Shown in pieces: positions 10,809 to 22,640 of a stretch of DNA of 62,425 bases (positions are counted from its first letter, which is position 1; each line of letters starts with the position of its first letter). The notes beneath the pieces are model-generated. The model was not told the DNA's origin. It ran no database searches and saw only the letters and a list, made by a program, of their open reading frames with translations. The position numbers and the translations under genes are program-made. The stretch comes from a virus (lineage: Duplodnaviria > Heunggongvirae > Uroviricota > Caudoviricetes): IMG/VR virus record IMGVR_UViG_2877269240_000007. One strand, written 5' to 3'.

Positions 10809-10964
10809 TTACTCACCTGAATGTCTTCCCAACCAACGACGTGCGCCAGCTTCGGTTTTAAACGTTTTGCTTTTGGTATACGTTATGGCGGTGAATGTGC
10901 CGTCCTGGTTGGGGAACACGCCGTACACCGGAGATTCGTTGTTGCCAAGATCGATAGTATTCAT
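10809..10964 (-). CDS. YdfA-like small prophage protein
   Basis: 51-aa MNTIDLGNNESPVYGVFPNQDGTF...; first gene downstream of dicA-like repressor as in Qin. Confidence 0.45.
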   Translation of the reverse strand: MNTIDLGNNESPVYGVFPNQDGTFTAITYTKSKTFKTEAGARRWLGRHSGE

Positions 10965-11166
10965 GTTGACCCCATTTCCCCTTAACGCCGGGGTAGCGGA
11001 ACTGTTTGCTGAGAACACCGTGCGGTGTCTTGATGAATAAAATTTAGAATAACCTAAGGAGGGTGATCAAGATTTTTATGTAGAAAAACCTAAGTTTTTT
11101 GATGTAAAAAACACAAGTGTTTGAAAGTTTGTGCTTTTTATTACAGGGTGTGGAGAAAAAAGGGGA

Positions 11167-11574
11167 TTATTTGTTTGCGCTTCTTTTGCGAGCTTTGAGT
11201 AGTTCTTCAAAAAGTTTGTTGAAATTTTCAACTCGAGCACGCATCTCTGACAACAGGGCCTTTTGCTCTGACTCAGGCAGTGCGTCGAACAGTTGAAGTA
11301 ACTCTTTTTGATCTTCTGTCAGAATGGCTGGCTGATTATCCGGGATCGGTTCGCCTGGTTGTTTATCTTCATCCCCAAAAAGAAGCCAAGTCGGTGAGCA
11401 CTGAAGCGCTTGGCTCAGTGCGAATAATCTTTTCCCCGCCGGCTGTGTTTCATCTCTTTCCCATTGAGAAATTGTTACGTGAGCCACTTTGACCAGCTTA
11501 CCTAATGCGGCCTGAGACAGTTTTAATTTTTTACGCCTATGTAAGAGGCGAGCACCGAAGGTTTCGTTTTTCAT
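11167..11574 (-). CDS. dicA: DicA-like HTH (XRE/cI-type) repressor
   Basis: 135 aa; strong similarity to E. coli DicA (...LFALSQALQCSPTWLLFGDEDKQP...FNKLFEELLKA). Confidence 0.85.
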   Translation of the reverse strand: MKNETFGARLLHRRKKLKLSQAALGKLVKVAHVTISQWERDETQPAGKRLFALSQALQCSPTWLLFGDEDKQPGEPIPDNQPAILTEDQKELLQLFDALPESEQKALLSEMRARVENFNKLFEELLKARKRSANK

Positions 11575-11650
11575 ATTAGGGAATTCTAATTTTTCTTGAC
11601 TTAGGTTTCTCTACGGCCTGGTTTCCTTAGGAAAATCTAAGGAGCTCGAT
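11575..11650. promoter_or_regulatory. divergent promoter/operator region between dicA-like and dicC-like genes
   Basis: 76-bp intergenic region between divergent repressor and Cro-like genes with partial dyad TTAGG...CCTTAGG. Confidence 0.4.
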
Positions 11651-11878
11651 ATGTTGAAAATTGATGCTATAGCGTTTTTTGGCAGCAAAACAAAGCTTGC
11701 CAATGCCGCAGGAGTTAGGTTGGCAAGCATTGCTGCATGGGGGGAACTGGTTCCTGAAGGTCGCGCGATGCGCCTGCAAGAGGCATCTGGCGGGGAACTT
11801 CAGTACGACCCCAAAGTTTATGACGAATATCGTAAGGCAAAACGACCTGGGAAGGTGATTCATGAAAATCAGGCATGA
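11651..11878 (+). CDS. dicC: DicC-like (Cro-type) regulator
   Basis: 75 aa MLKIDAIAFFGSKTKLANAAG...; RBS AAGGAG. Confidence 0.8.
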   Translation: MLKIDAIAFFGSKTKLANAAGVRLASIAAWGELVPEGRAMRLQEASGGELQYDPKVYDEYRKAKRPGKVIHENQA

Positions 11879-12284
11879 GCACATCGAATCAGTGCTGTTA
11901 GCCTTGGCAGCCGAAAAAGGGCAGGCGTGGGTCGCTAACGCAATTACTGAAGAATATCTGCGGCAGGGGGGCGGCGAATTGTCTCTGGTACCAGGCAAGG
12001 ACTGGAACAATCAGCAGAATATCTATCACCGTTGGTTGAAAGGTGAAACGAAAGCGCAAAGGGAAAAAATTCAGAAACTGATCCCTGCGGTTCTGGCAAT
12101 TCTTCCGCGTGAGCTGCGTCACCGACTCTGTATCTTCGATACCCTGGAACGCCGTGCATTACTGGCGGCGCAGGAAGCGTTGAGTACGGCAATTGATGCG
12201 CATGATGATGCTGTCCAGGCCGTTTACCGGAAAGCACATTTCAGCGGTGGTGGGTCGCCCGGCGATTCTGTCGTAGTGCATTGA
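11862..12284 (+). CDS. YdaT-like (CII-like) prophage protein
   Basis: 140 aa; follows Cro-like gene as in Rac ydaS-ydaT. Confidence 0.55.
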   Translation: MKIRHEHIESVLLALAAEKGQAWVANAITEEYLRQGGGELSLVPGKDWNNQQNIYHRWLKGETKAQREKIQKLIPAVLAILPRELRHRLCIFDTLERRALLAAQEALSTAIDAHDDAVQAVYRKAHFSGGGSPGDSVVVH

Positions 12285-12361
12285 TTGAAATTAATCGTGC
12301 CGGATTGTTTTGTTCGGTATCAGTTAAATGTAACGCTGCGAGCGTTACAAGGTGAAAACAA

Positions 12362-13145
12362 ATGGCTTCAAACTGGATAAAGCTCGAGGTTATTACGCCG
12401 GATAAGCCGGAAATATTCAGGCTTGCTGAGATTCTGAATATTGATCCAGATGCCGCATTAGGGAAGGTTATTCGCTTCTGGGCATGGGCGGATCAACAAA
12501 TGATAGACGGTAATGCAGATTGTAACGCTCGCGGCGTTACAAAAAGTGCAATAGATCGCATCACTTTTATGTCTGGTTTTGCTGATGCGTTAATTCAGGT
12601 TGGATGGCTGGTCGAAAATGACGGTGGGCTTTCTCTACCTAACTTTGAACGTCATAACGGAAAAAGCTCTAAAAAACGGGCGGTTACAAACGAGCGAGTA
12701 ACAAAAATACGCGAACTGAAACGAAAAGGTAACGCTGCCAGCGTTACACAAACGGATCAAAAAGCGTTACCAGTGGAAGAGGAAGAGGAAGAGGAAGATC
12801 TAAATACTGATCTCCCCCTAAATCCCCCTCGCCAAAAACGAGCGTCTAAAAAATTCGAGCCGGAGGCTATTGAGCTGCCCGATTGGTTGCCGGAAACACT
12901 CTGGCATGAGTGGGTCCGGTTCAGACAGGCATTGCGAAAACCGATTCGAACGGAGCAGGGCGATACGGGAACTGGAAAAATTCCGTCAGCAGGGTTTTAC
13001 ACCTGAGCAGGTGATTCGACACAGCATCGCCAATGAATACCAGGGCCTGTTCGCGCCGAAAGGTGTTCGGCCTGAGACGTTGCTCCGACAGGTTAACACC
13101 GTCTCGTTGCCGGACAGTGCGATCCCGCCAGGCTTCAGGGGGTAA
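12362..13145 (+). pseudogene. YdaU-like replication-associated protein gene, frameshifted
   Basis: N-terminal frame 12362-13006 and C-terminal frame 12870-13145 (...EKFRQQGFTPEQVIRHSIANEYQGLF) overlap; shift near 12950-12965. Confidence 0.55.
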
Positions 13146-13151
13146 CGGACC

Positions 13152-13898
13152 ATGAAAAATATTGCGACAGGCGGCGTTCTGGAACGCATCCGCCGACTGA
13201 CCCCGCAACATGTAACCGCCCCATTCAGAACGGTAGCGGAGTGGCGCGAGTGGCAACTTGCTGAAGGCCAGAAACGTAGCGAGGAGATCAACCGCCTGAA
13301 TCGCCAGTTGCGGGTGGAAAAAATTCTGAATCGCTCAGGCATCCAGCCGTTGCACCGTAAATGCTCGTTTGCGAATTACCAGGTGCAGAACGACGGCCAG
13401 CGATACGCGTTAAGCCAGGCGAAATCCATCGCCGATGAACTGATGACCGGGTGTACAAATTTTGCGTTCAGCGGAAAACCTGATACCGGGTAGAATCACT
13501 TAGCGGCAGCTATCGGGAATCGCCTGCTGAAAGACGGTCAGACAGTGATTGTGGTTACCGTGGCTGATGTTATGAGCGCCCTGCACGCCAGCTATGACGA
13601 TGGGCAGTCAGGCGAAAAATTTTTGCGGGAGCTGTGCGAAGTGGATCTGCTGGTTCTTGATGAAATTGGCATTCAGCGCGAGACGAAAAACGAGCAGGTG
13701 GTGCTGCACCAGATTGTTGATCGCCGGACAGCGTCGATGCGCAGCGTGGGGATGCTGACAAACCTGAACTATGAGGTGATGAAAACATTGCTCGGCGAGC
13801 GGGTGATGGATCGCATGGTCATGAACGGCGGGCGCTGGGTTAATTTTAACTGGGAGAGCTGGCGTCCGAATGTTAGCCATTCGAGGGTTGTTAAGTAG
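13152..13898 (+). pseudogene. DnaC-like helicase loader gene with in-frame amber in Walker A
   Basis: GKPDTG-TAG-NHLAAAIG: the Walker A lysine codon position is TAG (13491-13493); frame continuous to 13898. Confidence 0.7.
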
Positions 13899-13912
13899 TT
13901 TCAGGAGGATTT

Positions 13913-14335
13913 ATGGCGAAACCTTTTACTCCCGAACAGCGGGAAGAACTGAAGACGCGAATTGTGGAACTCGTGCATCAGGACGGTCGGGTCACGATTC
14001 GGCAGTTGTCCGATGAAACAGGTATCAGTCGTGCGTCTGTCGGTCGCTTATGCATAGAACTGGTCGCAAGTGGTGATGTATATAATTCTGGCTACGGCTT
14101 ATTCCCGTCTGAACAGGCTCGCAAGGACTGGCAAAGCGCCCGCAAAAAACTCTCGAGAGTAAAGGTGAGGAAACCGGTTGTTGTTGATCCGGACCTTATC
14201 TGGTCATTACCTGACGGAGAAATACGCCGCTACGACAGGCGCCTGAATATAATCTGTCGCGAGTGCCGGAAGAGCGAAGCTATGCAGCGTGTACTGGCTT
14301 TCTATCAGGGTAATTTTCAGGAGGCGATACTGTGA
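13913..14335 (+). CDS. hypothetical prophage protein (YdaW position)
   Basis: 140-aa ORF with RBS AGGAGG. Confidence 0.45.
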   Translation: MAKPFTPEQREELKTRIVELVHQDGRVTIRQLSDETGISRASVGRLCIELVASGDVYNSGYGLFPSEQARKDWQSARKKLSRVKVRKPVVVDPDLIWSLPDGEIRRYDRRLNIICRECRKSEAMQRVLAFYQGNFQEAIL

Positions 14336-14392
14336 ATGAAATTAGCTATCAGGCTTCAATTACCGCTGGCATTCGCATCAAAGGAGAGGAGC

Positions 14393-14749
14393 ATGGAAAT
14401 AAAACCAGAAGATGAGTTAAGCAATATCGTTTTATTTCCGATAAAAGAGGATGACCCTCGTAATCAGGTTAATTTTCTTTATAAGCCATCGGAAAGACCA
14501 TATTGCCATCACGCCTCTGTACGGGTTGACGAAAAAGAGCGTCAGGTCCGCTGTAAAATCTGCGGTGCGGTTGTGGAGCCGTTTGACTGGATGCTCTCTG
14601 TGGCAAAAAGAGAAACCAGACTGGCAGATGATGTAAGGCTATTGCGCCAGGAGGAACAGGAAAGGCGGAGAAATATAGAAAAGCTGATACAGATTGAGCG
14701 TAACGCGAAAGCGCGGATACGCAGGGCGACAAAATCCAGAACTGAATAA
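14393..14749 (+). CDS. hypothetical zinc-ribbon-like prophage protein
   Basis: ATG with RBS AAGGAGAG; CHH...CxxC motif. Confidence 0.45.
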   Translation: MEIKPEDELSNIVLFPIKEDDPRNQVNFLYKPSERPYCHHASVRVDEKERQVRCKICGAVVEPFDWMLSVAKRETRLADDVRLLRQEEQERRRNIEKLIQIERNAKARIRRATKSRTE

Positions 14750-14896
14750 TTAAATTTAGCACTGTTAAAAATTTAATCCTTAACCGGAGGGATTTCTGCA
14801 CCCTCAAATCATCAGGAGACCGCCCGAAAGGGCGGGGAGCAGTCACACATCTGTTTCCGATAGCCCCGTTCTAATGCTACACTCTTTGATATTTTT

Positions 14897-15583
14897 ATGA
14901 CCTCAATAAACATATTTATGACAGTTGCTGATTTCAAACGGCCCAAATTGGAGCTCCCAAACGGGGCAAACAAACTACTACTGCACTCTTGCTGTGCTCC
15001 ATGTTCCGGTGAGGTGATGGAGGCGCTTCAGGCCTCGGGAATCGACTACACCATCTTTTTCTACAACCCGAACATTCATCCTCAGAAAGAGTATTTAATT
15101 CGTAAGGATGAGAATATTCGCTTTGCTGAACAACACGGCGTGCCGTTTATTGATGCTGATTACGACACAGACAACTGGTTTGAACGAGCCAAAGGAATGG
15201 AATGGGAGCCCGAACGAGGGATCCGTTGCACCATGTGTTTTGACATGCGTTTTGAGCGGACAGCGCTGTACGCCGCTGAAAATGGTTTCAGTGTGATCAG
15301 CAGTTCACTGGGCATTTCACGCTGGAAAAATATGCAGCAGGTTAACGACTGTGGGCGGCGAGCCGTCGCGCATTATCCGGGCATGGTGTACTGGGATTAT
15401 AACTGGCGCAAGCAGGGCGGCTCGTCCCGTATGATTGAAATCAGCAAGCGCGAAAAATTCTATCAGCAGGAATATTGTGGCTGTGTGTATTCTCTGCGCG
15501 ATACCAATCTACACCGCAAATCTCAGGGACGCCCTCTTATCAAAATTGGTCAACTCCACTACGGTAAAGAAGAGAAGGAGTGA
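14897..15583 (+). CDS. queH: QueH-like (DUF208) epoxyqueuosine reductase homolog
   Basis: [11 protein letters not shown] motif and downstream conserved Cys residues; start uncertain (14897 or 14918). Confidence 0.55.
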
Positions 15584-15810
15584 TTTTATGGGGCACCTTT
15601 CTGATTGATTTCATATTGGCGAGGTAAGTAGAATGACTGCGGGTGCTTGAGGCTATCTGCTTCAGGCATGAACACCAAAAGGCAGATAGAGAAAAGCCCC
15701 AGTTAACATTACGCGTCCGGCAAGACGCTTAACATTAATCTGAGGCCAATTTCATGCTTTGCACATGTAGGTTAGCCTCTTACATGCCGAAAGGCAAGGA
15801 GAAGCAGGCT

Positions 15811-15966
15811 ATGAAGCAGCAAAAGGCGATGTTAATCGCCCTGATCGTCATCTGTTTAACCGTCATAGTGACGGCACTGGTAACGAGGAAAGACCTCTGT
15901 GAGGTACGAATCCGAACCGGCCAGACGGAGGTCGCTGTCTTCGTAGACTACGAATCCAGGAAGTAA
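15811..15966 (+). CDS. hokD: Hok/Gef-family type I toxin (HokD/RelF-like)
   Basis: MKQQKAMLIALIVICLTVIVTALVTRKDLCEVRIRTGQTEVAVF...; overlapping upstream mok-like frame from 15754. Confidence 0.85.
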   Translation: MKQQKAMLIALIVICLTVIVTALVTRKDLCEVRIRTGQTEVAVFVDYESRK

Positions 15967-16043
15967 GAGTGACCGGGTGGGGAGCTGATCCCATCCCCGC
16001 CCACCTCTGATGTGTCAGGCATCCTCAACGCACCCGCACTTAA

Positions 16044-16087
16044 CCCGCCCATCGCTGTGATCTCTCAGCGTTTCGGCGGGTTTTTTG
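16044..16087 (+). terminator. intrinsic terminator downstream of hok
   Basis: CCCGCC...GGCGGG stem followed by T6. Confidence 0.4.
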
Positions 16088-16215
16088 TTGTTTATTTCCG
16101 GTGAATTTGATTCGCGCACCTTCGCAGATAGAATCGACTCACTTAAGTAGCGCGCAGGGAGAAGAGGGATGGACCCCGAACAGGGGAGAGCTATTTATCT
16201 GGAAGGATTCTGAAG

Positions 16216-16503
16216 ATGAAAATCGAAGAATTGCGTGAAATTTTTAGTGAAAATGGCCTCTATGCTGTGCGCGTTGAGAATGGAGCGATTGTCAGCCATT
16301 GCCGCATTAGATGTTTGCAATCTCAACAAAGGAAGAGCGGTGCTGTGTTATTTTATTTTTGTAATGGACTTCTGACGGACGGTTTTATTTTGCGTGAGGA
16401 CGAATTTGTCACATCATTACGGGTTTTGAAAAAGATTGGTTTTAAGGCTGGTTTTCTGCTTTTGCTGAAGAATAAACTCATCTACAATCTTGAGCAGGAT
16501 TGA
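16216..16503 (+). CDS. hypothetical prophage protein
   Basis: 95-aa ORF. Confidence 0.4.
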   Translation: MKIEELREIFSENGLYAVRVENGAIVSHCRIRCLQSQQRKSGAVLFYFCNGLLTDGFILREDEFVTSLRVLKKIGFKAGFLLLLKNKLIYNLEQD

Positions 16504-16953
16504 ACTCCTGCTGTGTAACACCGTGCCACCGGAGAAAGCCGATGGCACATATACAACTGGTCAAACAAACCTCTTCCGGATTACTTCTCCCGGCGACGCC
16601 GGAGAGTTGCGATTTTCTGCATCAAATCAAAATAGGTGAGTGGATACACGCAGACTTTAAGCGTGTGCGTAACTACGCATTCCACAAGCGTTTTTTCAAA
16701 CTCCTGCAACTGGGTTTCGTTTACTGGACTCCGGTCGGTGGGGCGATCACGCCTCGCGAACGAAAACTGGTGTCCGGTTTCGTTGATTACCTGTGTGAAT
16801 CAGTAGGCCGGGAACATACGCCAGCTCTGAGCGAAGCGGCAGAGCAATATCTGAATACAGTTGCGACACGCAGAACCCGTGATACGGCATTGCTAAAGTC
16901 GTTTGAGGCTTGAGGTGTACTGGCAATAGCGGACACTACCATTTGTTCTTTTT

Positions 16954-17772
16954 TTAAGCAGTCATCTGATGATATTTTTCCCTGAAGGCTGCCGGGGAGA
17001 TATTCCCCAGACGAGAGTGACGACGCTGACGATTGTAGAAAATCTCAATGTATTCCCGTATTACTGAGATGGCTTCATCCCGGTTATTAAAACGATAGTG
17101 GCTCAGGCTCTCATTTTTCAGCGTTCCCCAGAAGCTTTCCATCGGAGCGTTGTCGTAACAGTTACCTTTACGCGACATTGATGTTTTCAGACCAGACTGC
17201 TCCTGTATGACCCGGTAATCGTATGCGCAGTACTGTGAACCTCGATCAGAGTGGTGGATTAGCCCGGCAGGTGGGCGCTGGCTCCTGAGCGCCATAAACA
17301 GGGCTTTACCTGTCAGCTCTTTTGTCATGCGCTCTCCCATGGCGTAGCCGACAATTTCGCACGTATAAACATCTTTGATGCCAGCGAGGTACAACCATCC
17401 CTCCTGTGTGGCAACATACGTCAGGTCCGCCACCCAGACCTGATTTGGTGCTGTAGGAGCGAACGTCTGGTTCAGCAGATTTGGCGCAACTGGCAGATTG
17501 TGGTTCGGGTTCGTAGTCGCTCTGAACTTGCGTTTCTGCTTACAGCGTAGCCTCAGCTCCTTACGAAGACGTGCCAGTCGGTCACGACCAACGATGATGC
17601 CATTCTCTGCCAGCTCCGTCTGGAGCCGCCGGGTTCCATATGTTTCGCGAGTGCGGATATGTGCCACCTTAATCTCCAGTTTTAGCCGCTCATCACTTTG
17701 TTTTCTGTCTGAGGGTTCATGCTGTACCCAGTTGTAATAACCGCTCCTGGATACACCAAATACCTGACACAT
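16954..17772 (-). CDS. IS600 OrfB
   Basis: 272 aa. Confidence 0.85.
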   Translation of the reverse strand: MCQVFGVSRSGYYNWVQHEPSDRKQSDERLKLEIKVAHIRTRETYGTRRLQTELAENGIIVGRDRLARLRKELRLRCKQKRKFRATTNPNHNLPVAPNLLNQTFAPTAPNQVWVADLTYVATQEGWLYLAGIKDVYTCEIVGYAMGERMTKELTGKALFMALRSQRPPAGLIHHSDRGSQYCAYDYRVIQEQSGLKTSMSRKGNCYDNAPMESFWGTLKNESLSHYRFNNRDEAISVIREYIEIFYNRQRRHSRLGNISPAAFREKYHQMTA

Positions 17773-17807
17773 CGCTTCAATGGGAAATTGTTGTCGCCAT
17801 TGTTCGA

Positions 17808-18110
17808 TTAACGCGTATTTTTCAGCGACTCCTGTGCAAAATACGCTGTTGCTTTTTTTAATATATCTCGCTCAAGGCGAGCTTCATTTAACGCCTTACG
17901 CAGTTGCAGAATTTCAGATTCCAGTTCAGCCACCGTGCGGGAACCAGGAGTACCGAGCCCTTTTCTGGCGGCGGTAACCCATTGTCCTAAAGTGCCTTCA
18001 GGAAGGGATAATCGGGAAGCGCCTTCACTGATCGAAAGTTGATTTTCAAGAACCGTTCTGACAGCTTCGGCTTTGAACTCTTTAGAGTAACGTTGGGTTT
18101 TTCTGCTCAT
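17808..18110 (-). CDS. IS600 OrfA
   Basis: 100 aa. Confidence 0.85.
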   Translation of the reverse strand: MSRKTQRYSKEFKAEAVRTVLENQLSISEGASRLSLPEGTLGQWVTAARKGLGTPGSRTVAELESEILQLRKALNEARLERDILKKATAYFAQESLKNTR

Positions 18111-18698: not shown

Positions 18699-18881
18699 TT
18701 TACCCAACGAATACAGGAAAAAGCGGAGAACACCTTCGTCTCACCACGCTGGAAAGTGTCTGGATTCAGGGAAAACTACGTATGTGGGGGCGCTGGTCGT
18801 ATATTGGTGTGAAGTGGCACACTGAATTTGGCCACCTGAACAGAGGTGATATGCTCACCTCAGAACAACACAGGTGCTCCA

Positions 18882-20050
<1,169 letters not shown>

Positions 20051-20690: not shown

Positions 20691-20767
20691 GGCCCTTTAG
20701 CTCAGTTGGTCAGAGCGAGCGACTCATAATCGCCAGGTCGCTGGTTCAAGTCCAGCAAGGGCCACCA
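20691..20767 (+). tRNA. tRNA anticodon CAU (Ile2/Met-type, ileZ-like)
   Basis: cloverleaf with anticodon loop CTCATAA; resembles E. coli ileX. Confidence 0.8.
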
Positions 20768-20768
20768 A

Positions 20769-20845
20769 CCACCACTAGCTCATCCGGATAGAGCATCAAC
20801 CTTCTAAGTTGACGGTGCGAGGTTCGAGTCCTCGGTGGTGGGCCA
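20769..20845 (+). tRNA. tRNA-Arg (UCU)
   Basis: acceptor CCACCAC/GTGGTGG, anticodon loop CTTCTAA. Confidence 0.8.
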
Positions 20846-20847
20846 GC

Positions 20848-20922
<75 letters not shown>

Positions 20923-20925
20923 TAT

Positions 20926-21000
<75 letters not shown>

Positions 21001-21813: not shown

Positions 21814-22605
21814 TTAAGCAGCCATCTGATGATATTTTTCCCTGAAGGCTGCCGGGGAGATATTCCCCAGACGAGAGTGACGACGCTGACGATTGTAGAA
21901 AATCTCAATGTATTCCCGTATTACTGAGATGGCTTCATCCCGGTTATTAAAACGATAGTGGCTCAGGCTCTCATTTTTCAGCGTTCCCCAGAAGCTTTCC
22001 ATCGGAGCGTTGTCGTAACAGTTACCTTTACGCGACATTGATGTTTTCAGACCAGACTGCTCCTGTATGACCCGGTAATCGTATGCGCAGTACTGTGAAC
22101 CTCGATCAGAGTGGTGGATTAGCCCGGCAGGTGGGCGCTGGCTCCTGAGCGCCATAAACAGGGCTTTACCTGTCAGCTCTTTTGTCATGCGCTCTCCCAT
22201 GGCGTAGCCGACAATTTCGCACGTATAAACATCTTTGATGCCAGCAACATACGTCAGGTCCGCCACCCAGACCTGATTTGGTGCTGTAGGAGCGAACGTC
22301 TGGTTCAGCAGATTTGGCGCAACTGGCAGATTGTGGTTCGGGTTCGTAGTCGCTCTGAACTTGCGTTTCTGCTTACAGCGTAGCCTTAGCTCCTTACGAA
22401 GACGTGCCAGTCGGTCACGACCAACGATGATGCCATTCTCTGCCAGCTCCGTCTGGAGCCGCCGGGTTCCATATGTTTCGCGAGTGCGGATATGTGCCAC
22501 CTTAATCTCCAGTTTTAGCCGCTCATCACTTTGTTTTCTGTCTGAGGGTTCATGCTGTACCCAGTTGTAATAACCGCTCCTGGATACACCAAATACCTGA
22601 CACAT
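21814..22605 (-). CDS. IS600 OrfB (9-aa deletion variant)
   Basis: 263 aa. Confidence 0.8.
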   Translation of the reverse strand: MCQVFGVSRSGYYNWVQHEPSDRKQSDERLKLEIKVAHIRTRETYGTRRLQTELAENGIIVGRDRLARLRKELRLRCKQKRKFRATTNPNHNLPVAPNLLNQTFAPTAPNQVWVADLTYVAGIKDVYTCEIVGYAMGERMTKELTGKALFMALRSQRPPAGLIHHSDRGSQYCAYDYRVIQEQSGLKTSMSRKGNCYDNAPMESFWGTLKNESLSHYRFNNRDEAISVIREYIEIFYNRQRRHSRLGNISPAAFREKYHQMAA

Positions 22606-22640
22606 CGCTTCAATGGGAAATTGTTGTCGCCATTGTTCGA

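Follow-up and report, generated by a model that had tools for sequence, protein, structure and literature searches.

The DNA analysed here, referred to as the window, is a stretch of 62,425 nucleotides (nt) from a virus of the Caudoviricetes (IMG/VR record IMGVR_UViG_2877269240_000007), and its plus strand carries at 14897..15583 an open reading frame (ORF) of 228 open codons with no internal stop. An earlier note, made from the sequence alone, had read this ORF as a homolog of QueH (DUF208) carried as prophage cargo. QueH is an iron-sulfur, cobalamin-independent tRNA epoxyqueuosine(34) reductase, which converts epoxyqueuosine (oQ34) to queuosine (Q34) on tRNA-Asp, tRNA-Asn, tRNA-His and tRNA-Tyr. 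As described below, the gene, queH, lies in a small cassette that recurs in the prophages of Escherichia coli and Shigella, and it is under strong purifying selection.

A full-length QueH ortholog

In a hidden Markov model (HMM) search, the protein matched Pfam PF02677 (QueH, formerly DUF208; IPR003828) over profile positions 1-174 of 175 (E=1.9e-65, 220.6 bits; curated cutoff, 23.5 bits), and phmmer against the Protein Data Bank (PDB) recovered Thermotoga maritima QueH (7lc5, E=5e-22). The 11-residue Cys-containing motif singled out by the earlier note lies at residues 27-37 of the 228-residue ORF, and the further conserved cysteines that it mentioned are likewise in place. H30, C32, C33, C111, C114, C194 and C196 (228-residue numbering), which make up a His-x-Cys-Cys near the N-terminus, a central CxxC and a C-terminal CxC, were invariant across ten gammaproteobacterial QueH proteins and T. 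maritima QueH. We take this conserved Cys/His set to be metal ligands of QueH (for the cluster and the extra iron); all six cysteines and the histidine are present in the window protein and shared with T. maritima.

The protein was also modelled with AlphaFold2 (mean predicted local distance difference test score 76.9, predicted template-modelling score 0.78). When the model was compared with the PDB using Foldseek, the best five matches were all T. maritima QueH (E 6e-11 to 8e-10, target-normalised template-modelling scores 0.80-0.81), followed by TtuA/LarE-type PP-loop sulfurtransferases at E ~1e-4, and the predicted structure has the QueH fold, with its adenine-nucleotide alpha-hydrolase-like Rossmann core. 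The window protein thus resembles T. maritima QueH (PDB 7LC5/7LC7/9DEU) in its full-length Pfam match, fold, His/CC/CxxC/CxC residues, length class and single-domain organisation, whereas the two share ~31% identity and the window copy is prophage-borne rather than a chromosomal housekeeping gene. Sequence comparison confirmed the protein as a full-length QueH ortholog, and we consider it very probable that it is an active QueH enzyme. A pseudogene or a chance ORF was ruled out by the intact frame, the full-length HMM match and the intact state of 80 of 80 relatives.

The identity of the protein is not new, as RefSeq/PGAP and UniProt already name it "epoxyqueuosine reductase QueH", although no NCBIfam model matched it. 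The phage-oriented resources are less informative. In PHROGs, the corresponding family (phrog_3217) is classed as "unknown function", and its profile begins at the internal Met41, leaving the CCAPC motif outside; phage annotation pipelines for this reason call QueH a "hypothetical protein", as in Escherichia phage HannyBb. The locus therefore exposes a gap in phage annotation.

The 228 residues represent the longest ORF, but the ATG at 14918, which would give a protein of 221 residues, is most likely the true start. Met8 of the 228-residue frame is the point at which the N-termini of homologs align, and PGAP places the start at the equivalent of ATG 14918 in an E. coli locus that is 99.9% identical. 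The ATG at 14897 lies just 13 nt downstream of the putative -10 element described below, reads ATT in the prophage copy with the greatest divergence, and has no counterpart at the -21 position of the Erwinia chromosomal ortholog; these observations together favour ATG 14918. Since the upstream ATG is kept in 85 of 87 prophage copies (missing in 2), it may be used occasionally. Compared with an intact prophage copy in E. coli FDAARGOS_944, queH differs by one base, located upstream of ATG 14918. The coordinates of the gene and of the surrounding features are listed in Table 1.

Table 1. Features at and around queH, in window coordinates
Feature	Position	Strand	Basis and remarks
queH coding sequence	14918..15583	+	221 residues plus stop; QueH ortholog; PF02677, PDB 7lc5; most likely true start
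7-codon in-frame extension	14897..14917	+	Yields the 228-residue ORF; alternative start, probably unused
Putative extended -10 element TGCTACACT (TG-n-TACACT)	14875..14883	+	34 nt upstream of ATG 14918; conservation
Mobile queH cassette (leader, gene, TGATTTTAT after stop)	14847..15592, approximate	+	Megablast and alignment limits
DUF977 gene	13913..14335	+	Pfam PF06163, E=1.1e-33; conserved left neighbour of the queH slot
Zn-ribbon hypothetical ORF	14336..14749	+	Weak Zn_Ribbon_TF match, below the Pfam cutoff; in a minority of queH prophages
hok/sok regulatory RNA region (type I toxin-antitoxin)	15641..15816	+	Rfam RF01794 sok, 117 bits, E=2.6e-27
mok/hok reading frame	15754..15966	+	70-residue ORF; Hok peptide MKQQKAML... 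in the 3' 156 nt, ~15811-15966
Replication-module remnants	12362..13898	+	Disrupted ydaU-like gene; split DnaC-like ydaV; comparison with the FDAARGOS_944 prophage

A mobile cassette with a conserved leader

The limits of the cassette, which is ~750 bp in size, were drawn from two comparisons. Megablast matches in most E. coli genomes start at window position 14847, and in seven prophage copies with differing upstream genes the similarity extends from ~70 nt before ATG 14918 to TGATTTTAT just past the stop codon. In the alignment of prophage copies, an invariant block is found at TGCTACACT, and the sequence further upstream is divergent. TGCTACAC, which is continued by (T) in the conserved leader, was detected in all 87 copies, at a distance of 34 nt from the ATG in 86 of them and 35 nt in one.

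The same arrangement was observed outside the prophages. The chromosomal queH of Erwinia (positions 6880-7000 of an Erwinia-like metagenome contig) has TGCTACACT at a spacing equal to that of the prophage copies, and the AT-rich leader just before its ATG, "ATAAACrTATTT", is similar to that at window 14860-14917. Conservation suggests that TGCTACACT is a putative promoter element. Because the Erwinia gene has both this motif and a similar leader at the same distance, the simplest reading of the sequences is that the gene was captured along with its native promoter region. The "ATAAACrTATTT" leader, in which no Shine-Dalgarno sequence is visible, may itself be a conserved translation-initiation or regulatory element. 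A riboswitch upstream of queH (preQ1 or cobalamin) was ruled out by an Rfam E-value search of window 14000-17000, which returned only sok and neither a riboswitch nor any other known RNA upstream. Separately, a perfect GC hairpin without a T-run (CCGCCC-GAAA-GGGCGG) was noted at window 14820-14835, between the Zn-ribbon ORF and the queH cassette; it is confined to the allele with the Zn-ribbon ORF and may represent an RNA stabiliser, an insulator or a recombination scar.

Among 5,426 complete E. coli genomes, queH was found in 995 (~18%), nearly always as a single copy, and 1,014 of its 1,017 sites were chromosomal; queG was present in 5426/5426 genomes, and hence in every queH carrier. Database entries for Shigella flexneri 5 str. 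8401 and S. flexneri 5a M90T contain the exact 228-residue protein, the 221-residue form occurs in at least 1000 contigs of Shigella and E. coli, and IMG/VR contains 191 viral or proviral contigs with a QueH relative. The gene occupies a fixed slot, after the DUF977 gene and before hokD/hok/sok or the nin genes, in at least three prophage backbones, namely Rac-type (racC-kilR-sieB-racR-ydaSTUV ... trkG), Qin/dicB-type and a ybhA-site prophage, with DUF977 upstream in every prophage type looked at. The distance from the queH stop to hok is ~170-190 nt in 64 of 87 loci, the others having extra cargo in the gap, and the DUF977-to-queH spacing is 580 nt in 11 of 87 loci (those of the Zn-ribbon ORF type) versus ~200 nt in 63 of 87. 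As separate observations on this slot, genes for a DNA cytosine methyltransferase (Dcm) and an NgoMIV-family restriction enzyme lie directly downstream of queH in an O157:H7 prophage (7872-9882 of the locus), and a hypothetical protein and a KwaB-like Kiwa protein are encoded downstream of queH in strain CREC_5 (7896-9535 of the locus).

The queH cassette behaves as a moron, being discrete, variably present and located in unrelated prophage backbones. In common with known lambdoid morons (hok/sok and restriction-modification genes in the nin region; bor and lom elsewhere), it is small and autonomous, has a promoter-like element of its own, is placed between conserved phage modules and has homologs on bacterial chromosomes; it differs from them in carrying an enzyme of tRNA modification, where their cargo serves surface, toxin or defence functions. 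Its variable presence is illustrated within the E. coli B lineage, where B-LamR carries queH and BL21(DE3) (NC_012971.2) does not, owing to a clean deletion of 1,361 bp with flanks that are 100% identical. Besides queH and ~290 bp downstream of it, the deleted segment (B-LamR locus 6613-7973) comprises a methyltransferase fragment and the 3' end of the DUF977 gene, and the two strains form a natural queH+/queH- pair. In K-12, the annotation of the closest counterpart of the locus lists hok, relE and relB only.

A tblastn search against 50,697 phage records gave 25 matches, but the E. coli-type gene was found in just one bona fide phage, the viable, virion-forming HannyBb (6001-6687 of its locus). 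The single "UNVERIFIED: Bacteriophage sp." contig examined, of human faecal origin (MT835504.1, 29818-44402), is bacterial chromosome, in which queH neighbours ABC transporters, argininosuccinate lyase and aspartate-semialdehyde dehydrogenase. Further QueH matches of the "Bacteriophage sp." type in the phage collection are probably also non-phage, and the "Acinetobacter phage MD-2021a" records of 328-379 kb, judged from length only, are unlikely to be true phage genomes. With one bona fide carrier of the E. coli-type gene in this collection, the idea of QueH as a general phage auxiliary gene was rejected. A survey published in 2019 (Hutinet et al.; PMC6884629) found no QueA, QueG or QueH homologs in the viruses analysed, and with the prophage copy the gene pool of phages therefore gains a queuosine gene that is specific to tRNA.

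Chromosomal orthologs were next of kin to the prophage copies. The closest non-E. coli proteins, with 78-86% identity and the same invariant residues, are QueH of Erwinia, Photorhabdus, Providencia, Proteus, Gibbsiella, Pantoea, Ewingella and others. The surroundings were retrieved for Erwinia, Pantoea, Providencia and Photorhabdus, and in all four genera the gene has an ordinary, non-phage neighbourhood: between purL and a two-component system with glnB in Erwinia, adjoining tmcA, dapE and purC in Providencia, between a microcompartment operon and a P-type ATPase in Pantoea, and adjoining benE and toxin-complex genes in Photorhabdus. The window copy, in contrast, is mobile, variably present and coexists with QueG. 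The statement in the earlier note that enterobacteria normally use QueG consequently applies to E. coli, in which queG is universal, and does not extend to the whole order, four genera of which have QueH on the chromosome.

Pairwise Nei-Gojobori comparison of the seven prophage copies gave ratios of nonsynonymous to synonymous divergence (dN/dS) of 0.025-0.088, with dS up to 0.456. Against the chromosomal orthologs of Photorhabdus, Providencia and Pantoea (the Erwinia gene was left out of this calculation), dS was saturated and dN was 0.13-0.17, and capture from these three lineages is therefore not recent. The IMG/VR copies examined were all intact (80/80), with 18 DNA alleles encoding only five protein variants. 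Prophage queH is thus under strong purifying selection, and the pattern fits a QueH that has been kept functional through long residence in the lambdoid gene pool, even in decaying prophages. A divergent or repurposed paralog, which the earlier note had raised as an alternative, was ruled out as the main interpretation by the 78-86% identity, the full ligand set, the low dN/dS and the upstream motif shared with the Erwinia gene.

Candidate role in the lysogen and competing explanations

E. coli and Shigella do not synthesise vitamin B12 aerobically and need to import it, and queuosine at the wobble position affects the decoding of Asp, Asn, His and Tyr codons. The last step of the pathway, from oQ34 to Q34, is common to QueG and QueH (PMC5372724), QueG requires cobalamin (PMC4646009), and a passage of PMC6850298 that cites Frey et al. 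1988 states that bacterial tRNA in glucose-salts medium without B12 contains oQ and not Q. QueH is predicted to catalyse the same reaction in the same genomes as the E. coli QueG (YjeS; cobalamin and [4Fe-4S]), whereas the two belong to unrelated families, only QueG needs B12, and queG is core and queH accessory.

We propose that the cassette and its promoter-like region were once part of the chromosome of an Enterobacterales bacterium that uses QueH, that a lambdoid phage captured them there, and that the cassette now circulates as a moron in one early-right slot. In the lysogen, queH would be expressed from its own extended -10 promoter, and QueH would duplicate the reaction of the host QueG without vitamin B12, so that lysogens could finish queuosine under B12 scarcity and would not stall at epoxyqueuosine. 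A benefit of this kind would follow from the need of E. coli and Shigella to import B12, on which QueG depends. Taken as a whole, the proposal of an active QueH moron that is expressed in the lysogen and selected for B12-independence appears to us moderately probable. Phage-driven tRNA modification, as put forward in the earlier note, is a plausible notion, with lysogenic conversion from the cassette's own promoter being more likely than a lytic-cycle function.

Several points weigh against this proposal. The catalytic activity of the prophage QueH is inferred by homology, and the site of T. maritima Asp13, whose D13N mutant has a structure in the PDB, is occupied by Cys36 in the window protein (CCAPC versus CCAPD). 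Since a cysteine is invariant at this site in all 29 gammaproteobacterial QueH proteins aligned, Cys36 looks like the normal state of the clade, and the phage copy does not seem exceptional in this respect. A two-hexamer consensus promoter scan called no promoter at TGCTACACT or elsewhere upstream of queH, and no Shine-Dalgarno sequence is evident before the gene. Nor was a terminator-like site identified between queH and hok/sok in the window allele, a further difference from known lambdoid morons; in the second type of downstream allele, a GC-rich hairpin is present but lacks a clear T-run. The co-orientation of queH with the early-right operon may leave room for expression on induction only. 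Finally, 82% of complete E. coli genomes are without queH, and the fitness benefit is speculative because a functional difference between oQ and Q in decoding is not an established fact.

On another reading, queH would be a lytic-cycle auxiliary gene, which would be transcribed mainly from pR with the early-right genes on induction or infection and would tune the Q/oQ state of host tRNAs in favour of NAU-rich phage genes, with no benefit to the lysogen. In line with this, queH runs in the direction of the early-right operon, with the replication genes on one side and the nin genes on the other, no predicted terminator separates it from the genes upstream, and the virion-forming HannyBb has retained it. 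However, queH is intact and under purifying selection in prophages that are unable to replicate, such as that of the window with its frameshifts and insertion sequences (ISs), and the upstream motif is retained and also precedes the Erwinia chromosomal gene. Turnover and modification of tRNA within one lytic cycle would moreover leave little time for an effect, and there is a single carrier among curated isolated phages; we regard this reading as unlikely. A selected function would be dispensable altogether if queH were a neutral passenger that hitch-hikes in a recombination-prone slot beside hok/sok while QueG suffices. The universal presence of queG in E. coli, the restriction of queH to 18% of genomes, its loss from BL21(DE3) without obvious harm, and the possible stabilisation of the region by hok/sok are in line with this idea, but neutrality is difficult to reconcile with the dN/dS values at the dS observed, with the 80 intact copies and the small number of protein variants, with the promoter-like motif in 87/87 copies, or with the survival of queH in a degraded, IS-riddled Shigella prophage. 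We consider it quite unlikely.

Repurposing in conflicts between phage and host, or between phages, would entail another substrate (a 7-deazaguanine DNA base or the precursor pool) or a part in defence or counter-defence. Phages do use 7-deazaguanine chemistry for DNA modification (PMC6884629), and the slot beside queH holds restriction-modification (Dcm and NgoMIV-type), Kiwa-like or hok/sok cargo in different prophages; this cargo, however, varies independently of QueH, which is always a single gene. PADLOC gave no match for QueH, the Zn-ribbon ORF, the ORF after hok or the DUF1367 fragment, and only two weak matches for the DUF977 protein (E 0.002-0.007), and QueH as a defence-system component was rejected since PADLOC was empty for it. 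The phage clusters FolE/QueD/QueE/QueC plus DpdA draw, like queH, on the queuosine/7-deazaguanine enzyme repertoire, but they make preQ0-derived DNA bases, whereas the queH prophage has the last, tRNA-specific step only. No DpdA/TGT, QueA, QueC, QueD or QueE is annotated in the intact FDAARGOS_944 prophage, and no DpdA/TGT or preQ0-synthesis gene was found there or among the window ORFs scanned. The close identity to housekeeping QueH, with the same invariant residues, no lineage-specific acceleration and no extra domain, also argues against a new role, and repurposing seems to us very unlikely.

Our preferred interpretation, expression of an active QueH in the lysogen, invites a more tentative extension, in which QueH would be a lysogenic-conversion factor that uncouples the completion of queuosine from the host's B12 supply, and Q34 in B12-poor niches would alter NAU/NAC decoding and the expression of virulence genes. 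We think it has some chance of being correct, but would not expect it to be so. In this case, lysogens in aerobic sites, urine, blood and the cytosol of invaded cells would have Q34 instead of oQ34, the virulence genes of Shigella and pathogenic E. coli that are rich in A/U-ending codons would be affected via decoding, and this would be the first temperate phage to reprogram a host tRNA anticodon modification. Durand and colleagues are said to have observed in 1994 that a Shigella tgt/vacC mutant, in which queuosine is absent, had lowered virulence via VirF.

A full-text literature search found no paper on QueH in E. coli or Shigella prophages. The enzyme is thus a known one whose mobile context has apparently not been described before, and the advance concerns context and physiology, not mechanism. 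With a mobile B12-independent route predicted for ~18% of E. coli genomes and broadly across Shigella, strains would differ in the B12 dependence of their tRNA modification, and differences such as those between E. coli B and BL21(DE3) or K-12 bear on the interpretation of tRNA-modification data. The locus is of relevance to researchers on tRNA modification and on prophage cargo, and does not constitute a new kind of system.

Prophage surroundings in the window

An intact lambdoid prophage adjoining ybhA/modC in E. coli FDAARGOS_944 matches window 10374-16911 with 99.3% identity. That prophage has the order int, xis, recombination genes, cI, cro, ydaT, replication protein and ydaV, continuing with DUF977, a hypothetical ORF, QueH, hokD, DUF1367, DUF1364 and DUF1133, and then tRNAs, lysis genes and structural genes. 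The earlier note had placed queH between remnants of a replication module and hok, and this description was borne out on both sides, by a frameshifted replication gene and a split ydaV upstream and by hok/sok (RF01794) downstream, where the mok/hok frame corresponds to the gene annotated as hokD in the near-identical FDAARGOS_944 locus. Compared with the intact copy, the ydaU-like replication gene has a 6-bp insertion (12772-12777) and an 11-bp deletion (at 12957), and the DnaC-like ydaV (13152-13898) is split into two ORFs, the 3' fragment having an IstB_IS21 ATPase match. Because of these indels and the split ydaV, the window prophage is replication-defective.

Two IS3-family elements break up the nin region of the queH prophage, one cutting DUF1367 at 16911/18175 and the other located at 18809/20059. 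Despite these two elements within 3.3 kb and the frameshifted replication genes nearby, queH is intact. IS3-family insertion sequences, recognised as pairs of HTH_Tnp_1 and rve ORFs, are numerous in the window: those at 16954-18110 (minus strand) and 18846-20050 (plus strand) are accompanied by ORF pairs of the same size elsewhere, for example at 2675-3831, 4378-5582, 21814-22943 and 23073-24277.

A cluster of four tRNA genes (CAT, Arg-TCT, Thr-TGT and Gly-TCC) occurs twice, at 20691-21000 and 31513-31823, and the window therefore holds two lambdoid prophages side by side. A link of queH to these prophage tRNA genes was ruled out, since Met/Ile-CAT, Arg-TCT, Thr-TGT and Gly-TCC are not queuosine substrates. 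In the second prophage, the replication genes (28116-30391) are DnaC-like and DnaB-like, and the genes from terminase to tail (38081-58849) are lambda-like. Genes for IpaH-type type III effectors, with LRR_TTSS and NEL E3-ligase domains, flank the prophage region at both ends of the window, at 1-1812 (plus strand, overrunning the window start) and 59603-61366 (minus strand), in an arrangement typical of Shigella chromosomal ipaH. Together with the many IS3-family elements, these genes are compatible with a Shigella origin of the window.

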